NCBI RefSeq assembly: GCF_035273305.1
Contig: NZ_DATEPI010000104.1
Span: forward strand, 4,979 to 68,978
Direction of reading: 5' to 3'
Source of the DNA: Bradyrhizobium sp.
Lineage (GTDB): Bacteria; Pseudomonadota; Alphaproteobacteria; Rhizobiales; Xanthobacteraceae
DNA length: 64,000 nt
Shown: piece by piece, positions 33,867 to 41,596 of the stretch
How the letters are laid out: each line of letters begins with the position of its first letter
How positions within the stretch are numbered: the first letter of the stretch is position 1
Notes under the pieces: model-generated
Seen by the model: the letters and a program-made list of their open reading frames with translations, nothing else
Database searches by the model: none
What the model was told of the DNA's origin: nothing
Program-made: the position numbers and the translations under genes

Positions 33867-35390
33867 CTAAGCCTGCGGAGGAGGCACGTTGGTCGCGTAC
33901 CAATCCCTGACGCGCTCCAGCGAAGGATGTGCCAGCGAACGAATGAGATAGGTCCAGATTCGGGGCTGATGGCGCAAATATTGCGGCTTGCCGTCGCGCC
34001 GGTTCAGCCTCGCAAATGTGCCGAGCAGCCGAGTATTCCGTTGCGCCGACATGAGCGCATAGAGCTCGGCGAACCCGGCAGCGTCGAACGTATTGTCGAA
34101 GGCGCGCCGCGCCTTGATGTACCGCGTCAACAACAAAAGCTCGAGCTGCTCCGGCACATCGATCCGCGCGTCCTGCAACAGCGATACCAGATCGTAGGAG
34201 GTCGGACCGAGCACGGCGTCCTGGAAGTCGATGATTCCCACCCGCGCGATGCCCTCCCGTTCGCCGAGCCAGATCAGGTTGGGGGAATGAAAATCTCGCA
34301 GCACCCAGGTTCCGGGAGCGGAGCTGGCCTCCCTCAACAGATCGCGCCATATGGCGGTGAATTCCGCACGCTTGTCGCTATTGAGTGCGACGCCACGATC
34401 CGGCAGGTACCATTCGGGCATCAAGCCGAGCTCCACCAGCATTGCACCAGTGTCGAATGCCGGGATGGTGTAGGTGAGCTGCGAGCCCAAAAAGAGAGTT
34501 TCAGGCAGCGTTTCACGATGCAGTGCCGCCAGGGCGTCGGTCGCGGCTTCATACCGTCGGACGATCGGCCGAGGTGGGTTGCCTTCGATAATACCTTCGC
34601 TGCCGAAGTCTTCAGTGATCAGGAATCCAGCATCGAGATCGGCGTGATGTATGGCCGGCGCGGAGAAGCCGCGCTCGCGCAGGCCTCCGGCCATGGCGAC
34701 GAACGGCTTGACGTCCTCTGCCAGGTGCACGGCGGCGCTATATGACTTTCCATCATAGATCGGGGGACCGTCCGGTCGCCGCGGCGAGTTCATCAGTATG
34801 GCAGCGCCATCATCGCGCAACAGGCGGGCGTAGGAACGCGTCGAGGCATCGCCGGTCATGCGCTGGCGTTTCGCAGCTGTATAACCCGAAGCGTCGAGAA
34901 AGCTCAGGAGCGCTTGCAATCTGGCGACCTGCGCGGCGGCCTTGCCGTATCCAGTAATCTCAGCCGCGCGTGCTGTTGATCCCAAGGCCGGACGGTGAGC
35001 GAGCGCGATATCAATGCGGTCCGAGGGCAACGCCGACGGGGCGCGCTCCGGCCATTCGATTAGCGCGACAGCACCTTCTGGCAAGGGCGATAGGCCAATC
35101 TCTTCCAGTTCGATCGGATCGTTGACGCGGTAAAGATCCGCATGGAGCAGCGGATACGGCGGCAATTCATAAACCTGCACCAAAGTGAAGGTCGGGCTTG
35201 GGACCTCCAACGCATCGTCACCGGCTAGATAGCGGATCATGGCCCGCGCCGCTGCGGTTTTGCCGGCGCCGAGGTCGCCGGAAAGCGTGATCAGGTCGCC
35301 AGGACCAAGCAAAAGGGCCAGATTGGCCATCAGATTTGCGGTCGCGGTTTCGTTGGATAGCGCCACCGACAATGTCGTCGGCTCGGTCAT
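33867..35390 (-). CDS. tsaE: TsaE ATPase fused to an AmgK-like phosphotransferase
   Basis: N-terminal GDLGAGKT, VPSPTFTL, HADLYR, IEW; C-terminal GDASTRSYARL, RDFHSPNL, IIDFQDA. Confidence 0.9.
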   Translation of the reverse strand: MTEPTTLSVALSNETATANLMANLALLLGPGDLITLSGDLGAGKTAAARAMIRYLAGDDALEVPSPTFTLVQVYELPPYPLLHADLYRVNDPIELEEIGLSPLPEGAVALIEWPERAPSALPSDRIDIALAHRPALGSTARAAEITGYGKAAAQVARLQALLSFLDASGYTAAKRQRMTGDASTRSYARLLRDDGAAILMNSPRRPDGPPIYDGKSYSAAVHLAEDVKPFVAMAGGLRERGFSAPAIHHADLDAGFLITEDFGSEGIIEGNPPRPIVRRYEAATDALAALHRETLPETLFLGSQLTYTIPAFDTGAMLVELGLMPEWYLPDRGVALNSDKRAEFTAIWRDLLREASSAPGTWVLRDFHSPNLIWLGEREGIARVGIIDFQDAVLGPTSYDLVSLLQDARIDVPEQLELLLLTRYIKARRAFDNTFDAAGFAELYALMSAQRNTRLLGTFARLNRRDGKPQYLRHQPRIWTYLIRSLAHPSLERVRDWYATNVPPPQA

Positions 35391-37906
35391 TCCGCGGCGT
35401 TGCGATGCGCGGACTGCTCGATCGGAAAATCGCAGGTCACAGTCGTGCCCTTGCCGACGATGGAATCGACTCGCACCTTGCCTCCGTGCAGTTCGACAAA
35501 GGAACGAACCAGCGACAGCCCGAGCCCGGCGCCGCGATGGCGGGAACCGTGCGAGTGACTTTCGAACCAGTCGAACACTTTATCTTTAACATCGGGCGGA
35601 ATCCCCGGGCCGGAATCGGTCACCGTGAACGTAACGCTATGCTCGGTGCGTCGGGCGCTCAAGCCCACCGTAGCATCGTGGGGCGAGAAACCGACGGCGT
35701 TGGCGAGCAGATTATATAGCACTTGCACGACACGGCGCTCGTCTCCGATGAAGCTGCCGATATTGTCGTCGATATCGACCTTGAGTTTGATGCGATCGGT
35801 CGCCAAACGGTCCTGGATGCCTTCGGCGGCGGCCTCGATCGTTTTGCGTATGTCGACAATTCCCAAATTGAGCGACATCGCGCCGGCATCGATGGTTGCG
35901 AGATCGAGGATGTTGTTGATGATCGCAAGCAGCGCGTTAGTGGACGTCGTGATGTAGGCCAGATATTCGGCCTGTTTTGCGGTCAGCGGGCCGGTAACGG
36001 GGTCACTCAGGAAATGCGCAAATCCGATGATGGTAGTCAGGGGCGAGCGCAGCTCATACGAAACGTGATGGACGAAATCGACCTTCATCTGATCGGCGGT
36101 CTCAAGCGCCTCGTTGCGCTCGCGCAACGCGCGCTCGACATTTTCGGCGTCGCTGATGTCCTGGAACGTCAGCATCGTGGCGCCGTCGGGCAGCGGCATG
36201 GTCATGCAATCGAGCACGCTACCGTCACGCCGCTCCAGCTTGAGCGGCACCTGCACGCGATTTTCAATCGCGGTAATCGCTTCGCGGATCGTGCGCCACG
36301 TGTTCGCTTCATCGAACAGCGGCCGACACCAGGCTTCAACGGCTTCGATATGAGGCTGCTCGCGGAGGGCGTCGGGTGACAGCTTCCACATTTTCGCAAA
36401 AGCCGGATTGAATAATTGCGCTCGGCCGTTGCTGCCGAACACCGCAACCGCCTCGGCGAGATTGTCGAGGGTTTCACGCTGCACCCGGATCAGGCCGTCG
36501 AACCGGCGGGCGAGGTCGAGGCTTTCGGTAACGTCATCGAACAGGTAGGTGACGCCGCCTTCCGGGTTGGGGGTGGTGACGACGCTGACAGCGCGGCCAT
36601 CCGGGAGGTACCAGGTATCCTTGGTGGGTTCGACCGCGCGGTAAGCCTCATGCAGCTTGGCTTTCCAGGCGCGGAAATCCGGCTGCTCCGGGAGTTTGCG
36701 TGCCGCGCGTAGCCGATCCAGCACGCTGGAATCATCGGGATTGGCGTCGAGAAACGTCCGGTCGAGATCCCACAGGCGGCGATAGGAATCGTTGTAGAAC
36801 GCGAGGCGCCGAAGTCCATCGAATACGGCGACACCGGACGACAATTGATCGAGCGTGCGGCGATGAGCCTCCGCCATCCGTACCAGCGCTGCGCCGAGCG
36901 CGGTGGCTTCGCTGGCGTCGATGGCGATACCGGCGCTTCCGCTGTCGAGCTTGAGCGCATGCACGTCATAAACGCGGCGCTCACCGCCAACTACGATCGG
37001 CAGCCGCCCGGCGAATTCCGACTGGTGACTGAGCGCGCGGCTCATGATTTCGCGCTGGTCGGTTTCGAGCAATTCGAGGTCGCGATCAATCGCGTCCGCG
37101 GTACTTACGGCTTCGGTGGCTTTCGCATAGGCGGCGTTGGCATAGCGCAGCCTGCCTTGGGCGCCCTTGGCCCAAATCGGCCAAGGCAGGGCGGCGGCGA
37201 AATCGCGCAACAGCTCGGTTTCCTCCAGCAGTGCCTTATATCGCAGATTCGATTCCGCCAGCTCGCGGCGGACACCACCCAGTTCGCGAATCCGAACAAT
37301 GGCTTGCCCGCCGATCGCCCGACCCATGGCCTCGATCGCGCGTCCATTTGACGTGCTGAGATTAAGCAGGAAGCCTTCGCCGGCCTCGCGCAGTGCGTCG
37401 AGCGCGTGGTCCATTTGCAGGGCCGGTTCGGGCGGCAACCAGGTTCCGAACGCAAGGATGCGCTGCGGTGGATGTTGCGCGGACTGCTGCGGCATCAGTA
37501 GAGACGTGTCGCCGCTGATTTCGGGACGATCGTCGCCGGCCGCCCACGATATCAGGATCTGCGGCTCCGCGAACAACAGCGCCCGGAAGCGGTCGGCCTG
37601 CGCCTGCAGTTCGCCGACTTCCGCTCTGAGCCGAGCCTCGTTTTTGGCGGCGCGGAGGCGGGTTCGCATTAACAGGATCGCCGCCAGCACCGAAAACCCA
37701 AGCAGCGCGAGCGCGGTGGTAAGCACCGCGAATTCCTGCCGATTGAGATCGAGATAGCCCGAGAGGGCTTCTATAACAGACGATTCATCAGCCTTGGCGG
37801 ATTTAACCGAGACGAATGCCGCGGCCACAAGTGCGACCACGCCGTGGCGTGCCAATGTTGTGCACGACAGCAGGGTCCGACGCATCGTAACGATCACGCC
37901 TGACAT
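35387..37906 (-). CDS. divL: DivL-like PAS-domain pseudo-histidine kinase
   Basis: Multiple PAS-like segments; H-box VSYELRSPL (Tyr at the His position); HATPase motifs NLLANA, DSGPGI, GAGLGL. Confidence 0.85.
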   Translation of the reverse strand: MSGVIVTMRRTLLSCTTLARHGVVALVAAAFVSVKSAKADESSVIEALSGYLDLNRQEFAVLTTALALLGFSVLAAILLMRTRLRAAKNEARLRAEVGELQAQADRFRALLFAEPQILISWAAGDDRPEISGDTSLLMPQQSAQHPPQRILAFGTWLPPEPALQMDHALDALREAGEGFLLNLSTSNGRAIEAMGRAIGGQAIVRIRELGGVRRELAESNLRYKALLEETELLRDFAAALPWPIWAKGAQGRLRYANAAYAKATEAVSTADAIDRDLELLETDQREIMSRALSHQSEFAGRLPIVVGGERRVYDVHALKLDSGSAGIAIDASEATALGAALVRMAEAHRRTLDQLSSGVAVFDGLRRLAFYNDSYRRLWDLDRTFLDANPDDSSVLDRLRAARKLPEQPDFRAWKAKLHEAYRAVEPTKDTWYLPDGRAVSVVTTPNPEGGVTYLFDDVTESLDLARRFDGLIRVQRETLDNLAEAVAVFGSNGRAQLFNPAFAKMWKLSPDALREQPHIEAVEAWCRPLFDEANTWRTIREAITAIENRVQVPLKLERRDGSVLDCMTMPLPDGATMLTFQDISDAENVERALRERNEALETADQMKVDFVHHVSYELRSPLTTIIGFAHFLSDPVTGPLTAKQAEYLAYITTSTNALLAIINNILDLATIDAGAMSLNLGIVDIRKTIEAAAEGIQDRLATDRIKLKVDIDDNIGSFIGDERRVVQVLYNLLANAVGFSPHDATVGLSARRTEHSVTFTVTDSGPGIPPDVKDKVFDWFESHSHGSRHRGAGLGLSLVRSFVELHGGKVRVDSIVGKGTTVTCDFPIEQSAHRNAAE

Positions 37907-38077
37907 ATTTGCCCCAAACCACACGAATTTGCGCCCGGTGACCCCCCACCGTGCGCGAATCGATTGACAATATCCTCTTCCGGACTCGAGGGGTAAGAGT
38001 CCAGATCGTGAACGCGAATCCGCTCGCCCAAAAATGGGTATTAACCTGTGCGTGCTTGTTGAGTAGCTGTTGAGAAA

Positions 38078-38536
38078 TCAGCGTCCGGTCGAACCAAATC
38101 CGCCGCCGCCGCGTTCGGTCGAGGACAGCGACGTCGTCGCAACCAGTTCCGCCCTCACCACGGCCGCGATTACCATTTGCGCGATCCGCTCGCCCCGCCG
38201 AATCGCAAACGGCGCGTCGCCGTGGTTGATTAGGAGAACGGTTATCTCGCCGCGATAATCCGCATCGATCGTGCCGGGGGCATTCAGCACGGTGATGCCG
38301 TGCTTTGACGCGAGTCCCGATCGTGGACGAACCTGCGCCTCGGTGCCTCCGGGCAAGGCCACCGAGATGCCCGTCGGCACCAATACGCGCTGGCCCGGCG
38401 ACAGAGTTATCGGAGAGTCCTCCGGGACGGCAGCGAGCAGGTCGAGTCCGGCGGCGTGGGCGGTCTGATAGGCTGGCAGCATCAGGCCCTGGCCGTGCGG
38501 CAGCCGCCGCACCTCGACTTTGATGGCTGAACTCAC
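38078..38536 (-). CDS. dut: dUTP diphosphatase
   Basis: [37 protein letters not shown]; GTG start overlaps the coaBC stop. Confidence 0.97.
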
Positions 38537-39969
38537 GATTTTCCTCCGACGGTCTCGGCGATGCGCGCGACCAGCGCCGTGGCAACTTCCTGTTTGGTCA
38601 TCACCGGCCAGGAGTCGACTTTGATTTCCCCATCCACGCGGCTCAGCAGATGGACCGTATTGCGGTCGCCGCCCATAACACCCGTATCTGGTGAGACATC
38701 GTTGGCGACGATCCAGTCGCAGCCCTTGCGGGCCAGCTTTGCTTTGGCATTCTCGATCAGCATTTCGGTTTCGGCGGCGAAGCCGATCACGAGCTTTGGG
38801 CGGCCGTCCTTCAATTTTGAAATCGTTGCGAGGATGTCTGGATTTTCGATCAGTTGCAGTGGGGGCATGCCGGCGGAAGTCTTTTTTAGTTTCTGCTCGC
38901 CCTGCTCCGCAACGCGCCAGTCAGCGACAGCCGCCGCGAAGATCGCGATATCCGCGGGAAGAGCGGCTTCCACTCGCCGCAGCATGTCGCGCGCGGATTC
39001 CACATGCTGGACTTTAACGCCAGGGGGATCATCGATATCGACCGGACCGGAAATCAGCGCGACCTCGGCTCCGGCAGTAGCTGCCGCAGCGGCGATCGCA
39101 AACCCCTGTTTCCCGGAAGAGCGATTGGCGATGTAGCGTACCGGATCGATCGGCTCGTGGGTGGGCCCTGCGGTAATGAGAACGCGCTTTCCCGCCAGCG
39201 GTTGCGGCTGCGCCCGATGCAGCAGGCGCTCTGCTGCGGATGCTATCTCGATCGGTTCTGCCATCCGCCCGAGGCCCGCCTCCCCCGCTTCTGCCATTTC
39301 GCCAGTGTTGGGTCCGACCAATGCGACACCGTCCCGTTCGAGCTGGACGACGTTGCGGCGGGTAGCGGCGTTGTTCCACATCAGAGGGTTCGTCGCCGGC
39401 GCGAGCAGGATCGGACGATTGGTGGCGAGCAGAATGGCACTTGCGAGATCGTCGGCAAGACCATTTGCCATCTTCGCCATCAGATCCGCGGTGGCCGGCG
39501 CCACGACAATCAGATCGCACTCGCGCGCCAGCCGGATATGGCCCGCGTCGAACTCGCTTTGCGGGTCGAACAAATCTGTGTAGCAGCGCTCGTTCGAGAG
39601 CGCGCTTGCGGCAAGCGGAGTTACAAATTGCTGCGCCGCTTTGGTCAGCACGCACCGGACGCGGATTCGCCGCTCTTTCATCCTGCGGATCAGGTCAAGG
39701 GCCTTATAGGCGGCAATGCCGCCGCCGATGATCAGTGTAACCCGAGCCTTGTCGAACACGTCAGGGCGGCTTGGGCCGCGCATAGATGCCTGGACAGGGC
39801 GTGGAATGGCTTGCGGCTGCGTGGCTTCGAATTCGTAGGGCACACCTTCTATGGTTTGCCGCAGGATTACCCGGACCTCCTCCTCGACAGAACGGCCATT
39901 CTTGGCCGAACGAAGCCGCAGATAGGTCTTGATGGTCTCGTCGAGCTTGCGGATCGTTATGCTGGCCAT
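38533..39969 (-). CDS. coaBC: Bifunctional CoaBC (Dfp) with N-terminal FitA/Arc-like RHH domain
   Basis: CoaC: [26 protein letters not shown]. CoaB: [48 protein letters not shown]. Residues 1-42 are RHH-like. Confidence 0.95.
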
Positions 39970-39985
39970 CGGCAGGGTCCAAATG

Positions 39986-40024
39986 TGATATCAATGATAC
40001 CACATTTTGCAATCATTGCAATCA
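39986..40024. promoter_or_regulatory. Four-box operator-like array overlapping a predicted coaBC promoter
   Basis: TGATATCA(39986)-A-TGATACCA(39995)-CATTT-TGCAATCA(40008)-T-TGCAATCA(40017). Minus strand gives TTGCAA(40021-40016)-N16-TATCAT(39999-39994) with extended -10 TG. Confidence 0.7.
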
Positions 40025-41596
40025 AAGCTGGCGCACCGCAAACAGGATAGCGATGAAGGTCGCGGCGATCACCCAAAGCGCCAGCGTACGCCACCGGCTC
40101 TTCCGGCCCTCGGTTCGTCCCATGGCCGCAATCGTTTCGGGCGCCAGTCTGAGACCCTCGCGGCTCATGGTCTCCATCTGCTCGATCACGGCAACCGAAC
40201 GCGCCGCAATGGTCGGCAGGCCGCTCATGACGCGGCCGAGTTCGCCGGCGCCGGACAGCGCGCCTTGAATGCGGCCGACCGGCCCGAGGTTGCGCTCGAT
40301 CCATTCGCGAACCACGGGATCGGCGATTTTCCAGATATCAAGTTTCGGGTCGAAGCTGCGGGCAACTCCCTCGACCACGACCATGGTCTTTTGCAACAGG
40401 ATCAATTCAGGCCGGGTGCGCATGTCGAACAGGCCCGTGACCTCGAGCAACAGCGTCAGCAACTTCGCCATTGAGATATCTTCGGCAGTGCGGTTGTGTA
40501 TCGGCTCGCCGATCGCGCGGATCGCCTGAGCAAAATTCTCGACCGAATGATGCCCCGGCACATAGCCGGCCTCGAAATGCACCTCCGCGACGCGCCGATA
40601 GTCCCGGGTGATGAACCCGAGAAGAATCTCTGCGAGGAAGCGCCGCTCCTTGCCGCCGAGTCGGCCCATAATGCCAAAATCCACCGCGACCAGGCGGCCG
40701 GCTTCATCAAGAAACAGATTGCCCGGATGCATATCGGCATGAAAAAAGCCGTCGCGCAAAGCATGGCGCAAGAAGCTCTGGATCACCTTGCGCCCGAGGT
40801 CCGGCAGATCCACGTTCGATTGTGCCAGGCGCGCATGGTCGCTGAGCGCGATGCCGTCGATCCACTCCATGGTCAGCACGTTGTGGGTAGTGCGATCCCA
40901 ATCGACGGCGGGCACGCGAAAGTCCGGGTCGTCGCGCGTATTCTCCGCCATTTCCGAAAGCGCCGCGGCTTCCAGCCGCAGATCCATCTCCATCGCAACC
41001 GAGCGCGACATGGTGTTGATGACTTCGACCAACCGAAGCCGGCGCGCCTCCGCCGAATAAGTTTCGGCGTTGTGCGCGACAAAGAAAAAGTCGCCGAGGT
41101 CGCGACGAAAGCGTGCGGCAACGTTGGGCCGAAGCACCTTGACCGCCACCGGTTTGCGCACGCCATCCTGCTCGGTTTCAGCGCGATGTACTTGCGCGAT
41201 CGAGGCCGCGGCCACGGCAGGACCAAGGCTTGCAAATGACAGGGCCAGCGGTCGCTCCAGCGACTGCGCGATGACGGCCTCGGCCTCGCTTTGCGAGAAC
41301 GGCGGCAGCCGGTCCTGCAAGCTTTCCAGATCGCGCGCCATCGCCACGCCGACCACATCGGGGCGCGTGGCTAGAAATTGGCCGAGCTTCAGATAGGCTG
41401 GCCCTAGCCGCGTCAATGCGCGCGACAGCCGCGGGCCGGATTTCGCGCCGGGACGCTCGATAATACGCGCCAGTCGCAGTGCCAATTGCCCGGGCGGAGG
41501 CACCAGTGACGGATCGACAACGCCGAACACGCCCTCGCGCGCGAATACGAAGCCGGCGCGGGCCAGCCGCGCGATGTGGGTCAACGCCGAGATCAC
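40022..41596 (-). CDS. ubiB: Ubiquinone biosynthesis kinase-like protein
   Basis: [47 protein letters not shown]. Confidence 0.96.

Follow-up and report, generated by a model that had tools for sequence, protein, structure and literature searches.

In this study, we analyzed a window of 64,000 nucleotides from Bradyrhizobium sp. (contig NZ_DATEPI010000104.1), in which the gene of the coenzyme A (CoA) biosynthesis enzyme CoaBC begins with a ribbon-helix-helix (RHH) domain of the FitA antitoxin type and is preceded by an array of four 8-bp boxes. The initial annotation of the window had regarded this arrangement as a candidate system in which the enzyme controls its own transcription. The genes at the locus and the domains of CoaBC, with predicted local distance difference test (pLDDT) values where a structural model was used, are as follows.

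38533-39969, minus strand: coaBC, open reading frame (ORF) with a 478-aa product
39844-39969, minus strand: FitA-like RHH domain of CoaBC, residues 1-42 (Pfam PF22513)
39745-39843, minus strand: Pro/Ala-rich flexible linker, residues 43-75 (pLDDT below 50 at residues 46-72)
39238-39744, minus strand: CoaC (flavoprotein, phosphopantothenoylcysteine decarboxylase), residues 76-244 (PF02441, E 1.3e-29)
38644-39198, minus strand: CoaB (phosphopantothenate-cysteine ligase; DFP), residues 258-442 (PF04127, E 5.3e-71)
38078-38536, minus strand: dut, dUTPase (PF00692, E 8e-32)
40022-41596, minus strand: ubiB (ABC1 kinase-like), the upstream neighbour (PF03109, E 9.5e-75)

The RHH head of CoaBC

The Pfam family FitA-like_RHH (PF22513) matched residues 2-39 of CoaBC with an E-value of 7.3e-15 and a score of 55.1 bits, against a cut-off of 27. 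The claim of the initial annotation that CoaBC opens with an in-frame FitA/Arc-like RHH was thus confirmed. In a six-frame search of the whole assembly (4,519,249 bp, 93.8% complete), this head scored 59.1 bits and was the sole PF22513 match. When residues 1-75 were compared with the sequences in the PDB, the top matches were those of FitA (2H1O and 2BSQ), in which the whole RHH was aligned at a marginal phmmer E-value of about 0.03. The head is followed on the same chain by CoaC and then CoaB, the Pfam domain order of the bifunctional CoaBC (Dfp). Only a single coaBC homologue is present in the assembly. As the sole copy in the genome, CoaBC is presumably the working enzyme.

The reading frame is open from the RHH into CoaC, with no stop codon and no conserved internal start. 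An internal start that would give an RHH-less CoaBC was rejected, since Met63 is not conserved (Thr or Ser in relatives) and has no Shine-Dalgarno sequence. The possibility that the ORF finder had joined a small, separate RHH gene to coaBC in error was also rejected, because the frame is uninterrupted and changes in linker length come in whole codons over 103 loci. In an AlphaFold2 monomer model, built on 58 fused homologues, the RHH helices were formed at residues 11-24 and 28-40 with a pLDDT of about 81, the CoaBC body was modelled with confidence, and residues 46-72 fell below 50.

The mean pairwise identity among these 58 fused proteins was 70% for the RHH, 78% for CoaC and 77% for CoaB, and was 25% for the linker. 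Residues T5, R7, K14, S27, E29 and R33 are invariant in all 58, which come from two families. The linker is variable in length and poorly conserved, and it is kept in frame in more than 100 genomes (the 103 loci mentioned above). Judging from these identities, the RHH is under purifying selection and is conserved like the catalytic domains.

Downstream, the stop codon of coaBC (TGA, 38535-38533) and the start codon of dut (GTG, 38536-38534) overlap as GTGA at 38536-38533, in agreement with the overlap noted initially. A GGAGG sequence lies 7 nt 5' of the GTG. Through the overlap, dut is translationally coupled to coaBC. The same pair in the same order, tightly coupled, is found as dfp(coaBC)-dut in E. 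coli and other bacteria. An ordinary CoaBC, however, has about 400-420 residues and no DNA-binding head. The RHH-CoaBC protein differs from that of the E. coli pair in its 478 residues and its putative DNA-binding head.

The box array and its distribution

The 52-bp spacer between ubiB and coaBC reads, on the minus strand, TGATTGCA a TGATTGCA aaatg TGGTATCA t TGATATCA catttggaccctgccg ATG. It contains the following elements.

40017-40024, minus strand: box 1, TGATTGCA, overlapping the ubiB stop codon TGA (40024-40022) and the -35-like hexamer
40008-40015, minus strand: box 2, TGATTGCA, starting 9 bp after box 1
39995-40002, minus strand: box 3, TGGTATCA, containing the -10-like TATCAT, 22 bp after box 1
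39986-39993, minus strand: box 4, TGATATCA, a perfect 8-bp palindrome, 22 bp after box 2, covering the expected transcription start
39994-40021, minus strand: predicted sigma-70-type promoter, TTGCAA - 16 nt - TG-TATCAT (consensus scan)

The four boxes over a predicted -35/-10, as originally described, were verified letter by letter at 39986-40024. Their start-to-start spacings are 9, 13 and 9 bp, so that two pairs of boxes are offset by 22 bp. The predicted hexamers TTGCAA (40021-40016) and TATCAT (39999-39994, with the TG extension) sit within boxes 1 and 3. The consensus scan found one promoter-like site here, against a mean of 0.1 in the shuffles. In the whole genome, the array is the sole cluster with at least three degenerate half-sites within 50 nt.

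The initial annotation had proposed the co-occurrence of RHH and boxes across relatives as a check. The boxes were found to accompany the RHH, whether fused or free-standing, and were absent at loci without an RHH. The 17-mer TGATTGCANTGCAATCA, allowing up to two mismatches and up to 150 nt upstream, was found at 63 of 71 RHH-bearing loci and at none of 28 RHH-less loci. With a strict pattern, box clusters were found at 89 of 112 RHH-bearing loci against 0 of 45 RHH-less loci (Fisher p 1.6e-22, kinship being ignored). The 23 RHH-bearing loci missed by this pattern had variant palindromes, such as TGCTAGCA or TGAAAGCA, or, in one case, a displaced array. When the upstream regions were read by eye, repeats of the type TGATTGCA-n-TGCAATCA were seen in every RHH-bearing region and in no RHH-less region.

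The dominant half-site in 130 RHH-bearing loci was TGATTGCA (215 occurrences), with TGATAGCA (47) and TGATATCA (24) also represented. The boxes most often started 9 bp apart (117 cases), distances of 13-14 and 22-23 bp between starts were frequent too, and the median distance from the end of the last box to the ATG was 29 nt. The boxes remain recognizable across two families and more than 100 genomes. At the genome scale, the palindrome (up to one mismatch) was present in 26 of 61 genomes of the family, and the reversed-pattern control gave 0. Each of these 26 genomes has a single copy, except one (G072) with five. Where coordinates of coaBC were available, the single palindrome preceded either coaBC, at a distance of 30-140 nt, or fitA. 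At least two genomes without an RHH (G061 and G095) have their single palindrome on a contig other than that of coaBC.

Several individual loci are worth describing. In the G072 genome, whose CoaBC has no RHH, the five copies of TGATTGCATCGCAATCA are scattered on five contigs; they may represent a repeat family or serve several free-standing fitAB modules as operators. In a metagenome-assembled genome (MAG) of the Xanthobacteraceae (L133), an insert of about 140 nt (-30 to -170) separates the fused coaBC from boxes at -202 to -171. The insert contains the motif ggccgggcttgacccggccatcc, which we take to be a GC-rich repeat element, and similar motifs lie upstream of coaBC at two further loci (L068 and L072). 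At an RHH-less coaBC (G113:C111; L105/L210), TGATTGCA-n10-CGCAATCA is found about 60 nt upstream, and the upstream frame aligns with the linker of the fused proteins from residue 58, with one internal stop. By its appearance, this locus descends from a fused ancestor and has lost the RHH secondarily.

Toxin-antitoxin relatives and the origin of the fusion

No match to the PIN family PF01850 was found in the whole assembly, and FitB-type PINs that are cognate in relatives gave no tblastn match in it. The absence of a PIN/VapC toxin gene, noted initially for the neighbourhood, therefore holds assembly-wide by both searches. The free FitA proteins of three relatives showed tblastn similarity mainly to the RHH head of CoaBC (extending from residue 1 to residue 36 or 42 with two of the proteins and to residue 60 with the remaining one). 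The toxin-binding C-terminal region of the antitoxin is absent from CoaBC, where residue 42 is followed by the Pro/Ala linker and then by CoaC. The RHH-CoaBC locus is no longer a toxin-antitoxin system.

Complete modules are present at the same position in relatives. The order ubiB, same boxes, fitA, PIN, coaBC was found in three genomes of the same family (G091, G157 and G210), in one of another family (G038), in a Hoeflea MAG and in Pseudaminobacter. The free fitA products of these relatives have 81-93 residues (PF22513, E 1e-18 to 1e-19), and their heads, for example MASLTIRNLDERVKTQLRMRAAKHGRSMEEEARRLL, are close to the fused CoaBC head. The PIN toxins have 133-145 residues (PF01850), that of Pseudaminobacter being of a different subtype; the PIN stop codon abuts or overlaps the coaBC start, and CoaBC itself has no RHH.

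An intermediate state was found in a congener of G210 (G083:C154; L102/L195). In this genome, fitA is kept and is followed upstream of coaBC by a PIN relic of about 34 residues, in which the first 16 PIN residues, 94% identical to the intact PIN of G210, are joined to the PIN C-terminus (..GVEIIDPW). As read from this sequence, the locus represents a toxin in decay. The boxes upstream of its fitA are degenerate, and the RHH strand has diverged (MAILTIHELDD).

The distribution of these states was placed on a quick FastTree phylogeny of one protein (157 CoaBC cores). A clade of 76 rows, containing Bradyrhizobium, Rhodopseudomonas and Afipia, is uniformly fused. A row in which the RHH is out of frame (G085) lies just outside this clade, and the resulting set of 77 rows has a support of 99. 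Elsewhere in the tree, fused, toxin-antitoxin and plain states interleave, and the well-supported branches cannot be reconciled with fewer than 7 changes in the fused state. Judging from this interleaving, toxin loss has repeatedly given rise to the fusion. In Hoeflea, a fused locus and a toxin-antitoxin locus form a sister pair with a support of 99. Between the aligned portions of their DNA, one comprising the operator and the RHH and the other beginning where the CoaC domain starts, the fused Hoeflea lacks about 600 nt, corresponding to the antitoxin tail and the toxin. The initial annotation proposed that the 5' end of coaBC captured the head of a fitAB-like antitoxin together with its operator. 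This proposal is supported by the intact and decayed fitAB relatives with the same boxes and by the sisters in the tree.

Two loci, both from MAGs (G085, L104/L192; and L146), have an RHH ORF that enters coaBC one frame off; since they are MAGs, the frameshift may be an assembly error. At another locus (L037, G206:C1), the coaBC frame is open over the whole 1500-nt upstream flank with a UbiB-like translation, giving an open frame of 1205 aa. This may be a ubiB frameshift or a ubiB-coaBC read-through frame.

The fusion itself is common. All genomes of the same genus (Bradyrhizobium) with a match were fused, and within the GTDB family the fusion occurs in many genera and is lacking in others. 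It was not found in 16 other families of the order, each represented by one genome. Named fused records include B. japonicum, B. cajani, Rhodopseudomonas and Afipia, and, in a second lineage, Mesorhizobium huakuii, M. neociceri, Phyllobacterium, Hoeflea, Zhengella, Nitratireductor and Lentilitoribacter. In a search scored on residues 1-45 of proteins of CoaBC length, at least 958 clusters at 90% identity carried the fusion. Among these, the clusters listed all had PF22513 and nearly all had one or both CoaBC domains. The named fusion clusters are annotated solely as bifunctional phosphopantothenoylcysteine decarboxylase/phosphopantothenate--cysteine ligase. A search of representatives with the RHH alone gave 1179 clusters (E up to 0.001), mostly short free-standing antitoxins; this number reflects the size of the family, and the clustering hides fusions. 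An order-wide prevalence estimate was discarded: a probe of 110 aa detected 3 genera among the 149 sampled at a threshold of E 1e-15, which is too strict for diverged fusions.

Full-text literature searches gave no relevant description of coaBC together with a ribbon-helix-helix or an antitoxin, which agrees with the initial statement that no description of the arrangement was known. In a large survey of toxin-antitoxin systems (PMC2701414), Dfp, CoaBC and pantothenate are unmentioned. RHH-CoaBC is widespread yet apparently undescribed.

Proposed autorepression and its alternatives

We consider it likely that the exapted antitoxin head makes CoaBC an autorepressor of coaBC-dut, in which the oligomeric enzyme takes the place of the toxin as the bridge between RHH dimers. 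The DNA binding, the sign of the regulation and the role of oligomerization are inferred. In the FitAB complex, the operator half-sites are occupied by one RHH dimer apiece, and the bridging of antitoxin dimers by dimers of the toxin makes binding strongly cooperative; autorepression by FitAB requires that several RHH dimers be kept together (PMC3378870, PMC3920265). The mycobacterial CoaBC is a dodecamer with a CoaC core and the dimerizing CoaB outside, and it binds CoA thioesters, cytidine triphosphate (CTP) and phosphopantothenate (PMC7794376).

The course of events would be as follows. A FitAB-type module, consisting of an RHH antitoxin and a PIN toxin, would have lodged between ubiB and coaBC and supplied the coaBC-dut promoter. 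Deletion would then have removed the toxin gene and the tail by which the antitoxin binds the toxin, the former operator-promoter being kept before coaBC-dut and the RHH head being left in frame on the N-terminus of CoaBC through a flexible linker of about 35 residues. In the present-day protein, RHH heads from neighbouring CoaBC subunits would pair as dimers, one dimer per 8-bp box TGAT(T/A)(G/T)CA. A tether of 30-45 residues on each of twelve N-termini could let the heads pair and occupy adjacent boxes, and the CoaBC body would hold several RHH dimers, giving the avidity that formerly came from the FitB toxin dimer. The four boxes would be filled cooperatively, and coaBC-dut transcription would be shut off as CoaBC accumulates. 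The outcome would be negative autoregulation of an essential CoA enzyme together with the co-transcribed and translationally coupled dUTPase.

The sign of the effect is suggested by the position of the boxes. An operator in the -35/-10 position normally represses. Since the boxes cover the predicted -35, -10 and start, their occupancy should repress, and autorepression is the likely consequence. CoaBC, in short, probably represses its own gene.

Several observations weigh against this proposal. The N-terminal strand of the RHH (residues 1-9) was not formed in the AlphaFold2 monomer model; a missing strand is expected where the fold exists only as a dimer, which is not proof. The consensus scan found 0 terminator-like sites between ubiB and coaBC. 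Without a terminator after ubiB, read-through transcription may bypass or complicate the control of coaBC. Boxes 1 and 2 are direct repeats here, and relatives commonly have an inverted pair. A strict E. coli-type -35/-10 was found in the box region of 31 of 121 fused loci, against 4.7 in the shuffles; the promoter overlap is accordingly a prediction, and the strict sigma-70 scan across relatives weakly supports a promoter within the boxes. Finally, the well-supported branches of the tree provide 6 independent contrasts, in about 4 of which the boxes change with the RHH and in none of which they change in the opposite sense. The sign test on these contrasts was not significant, the direction being right and the test underpowered.

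Some of these observations would fit an RHH that binds the boxes with an output other than simple self-repression, such as activation, a roadblock to ubiE-ubiB read-through or tethering of the enzyme to DNA. Box 1 lies over the ubiB stop codon with no terminator between ubiB and coaBC, and the modest number of fused loci with strict hexamers means that the real promoter could be elsewhere. The ancestral FitAB-type module, however, is an autorepressor (PMC3378870, PMC3920265), the boxes in this window span both predicted hexamers as well as the expected start, and the site is unique in the genome, as fits local self-control. We regard such another output as rather improbable. The probability is smaller still that RHH and boxes survive as the neutral remains of a toxin-antitoxin module in decay, CoaBC tolerating an N-terminal appendage that has lost its function. 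Toxin-antitoxin modules often decay, some relatives have fully lost the RHH and live without it, and in two MAGs the RHH is out of frame. However, conservation of the RHH is on a par with that of the catalytic domains while the adjoining linker drifts freely, the whole 76-row Bradyrhizobium/Rhodopseudomonas/Afipia clade retains the fusion (with G085 just outside), and the boxes persist across two families. The forced changes of state in the tree speak for several origins of the fusion, and the out-of-frame cases are possibly assembly frameshifts.

An anti-addiction role in trans, in which the fused RHH would silence incoming plasmid- or phage-borne fitAB modules through their operators, is hardly credible. 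Free-standing FitA-like antitoxins are indeed numerous, as the 1179 representative clusters indicate, and the RHH-less G072 holds its five palindrome copies elsewhere in the genome. The toxin-binding tail is gone in CoaBC, however, so that no toxin can be neutralized, and the enzyme's own promoter is the sole site in this genome. The least probable explanation, to which we give almost no credence, is that the boxes are bound by another factor, or are mere promoter elements, and that they accompany the RHH as a mere consequence of common descent. Relatedness does inflate the co-occurrence statistics, which reduce to the 6 contrasts described above. Nevertheless, the free-standing fitA at the same locus is preceded by the same boxes, the boxes are missing at all 45 RHH-less loci, congeners of box-bearing genomes included, and this genome has no second FitA-like protein that could bind them.

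An extension of the autorepression proposal is that RHH-CoaBC is a metabolite-sensing trigger enzyme, in which the binding of CTP, 4'-phosphopantothenate or a CoA thioester alters the pairing of the RHH heads or their reach on DNA, so that the CoA status sets coaBC-dut transcription and the enzyme has repeatedly replaced the toxin as co-repressor. The ligands bound by the mycobacterial CoaBC (PMC7794376) make such a switch conceivable. We consider this extension doubtful. If it were true, toxin loss combined with antitoxin-enzyme fusion would be a general route from operon-embedded toxin-antitoxin modules to metabolic regulators.

RHH-CoaBC shares with FitAB of N. gonorrhoeae, a VapBC-type module (2H1O, 2BSQ), the N-terminal PF22513 head and the 8-bp boxes on its own promoter, which is a predicted one here. 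As in type II toxin-antitoxin operators, repeated and palindromic sites lie on its own predicted promoter, and they are shared with the free fitA of relatives. The Neisseria FitAB operator is reportedly TGCTATCA-N14-TGATAGCA, with the same type of half-site and the same 22-bp offset. RHH-CoaBC differs from FitAB in that the locus and the assembly have no toxin gene, in that a linker and a 400-aa enzyme stand where the antitoxin would have its C-terminal toxin-binding tail, and in that the boxes are mostly adjacent at 9 bp and not only 22 bp apart.

The closest functional precedent is the trifunctional PutA of enterobacteria, a flavoenzyme whose N-terminal RHH turns it into the repressor of its own genes (PMC5293562). 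In both cases, a DNA-binding head on an enzyme is combined with an operator, here a predicted one, at the enzyme's own promoter; this is a functional analogy and not homology. The enzyme and the pathway are different, however, and the PutA switch consists of flavin reduction and membrane binding. Unlike that of PutA, the head of RHH-CoaBC can be recognized as a recent descendant of an antitoxin, and intermediates still exist. BirA and NadR are likewise enzymes of cofactor biosynthesis or salvage with a DNA-binding domain that controls genes of their own pathway, and their DNA binding depends on a reaction intermediate or the cofactor. They have helix-turn-helix heads, in contrast to the RHH on CoaBC. 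To our knowledge, there is no transcription factor for coaBC and no dedicated transcriptional regulator of CoA biosynthesis in these bacteria.

If the autorepression proposal is true, a regulator of CoA biosynthesis would be built into the enzyme itself, in the much-studied Bradyrhizobium japonicum and its relatives as well as in Rhodopseudomonas, Afipia and Mesorhizobium. The general idea that antitoxins become host transcription factors has been published (PMC8987985). The coaBC locus provides an unusually complete natural series for the domestication of a selfish toxin-antitoxin module, which starts with an intact module in an operon, passes through toxin decay and ends with the essential enzyme downstream carrying the antitoxin head. 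The operator is retained at every stage, and the transition has recurred in several lineages.

One further gene lies next to the locus in the window.

35387-37924, minus strand: PAS-PAS-HisKA-HATPase histidine kinase (by domain content), named divL in the initial annotation

Its start is 153 nt downstream of dut, on the same strand as dut.

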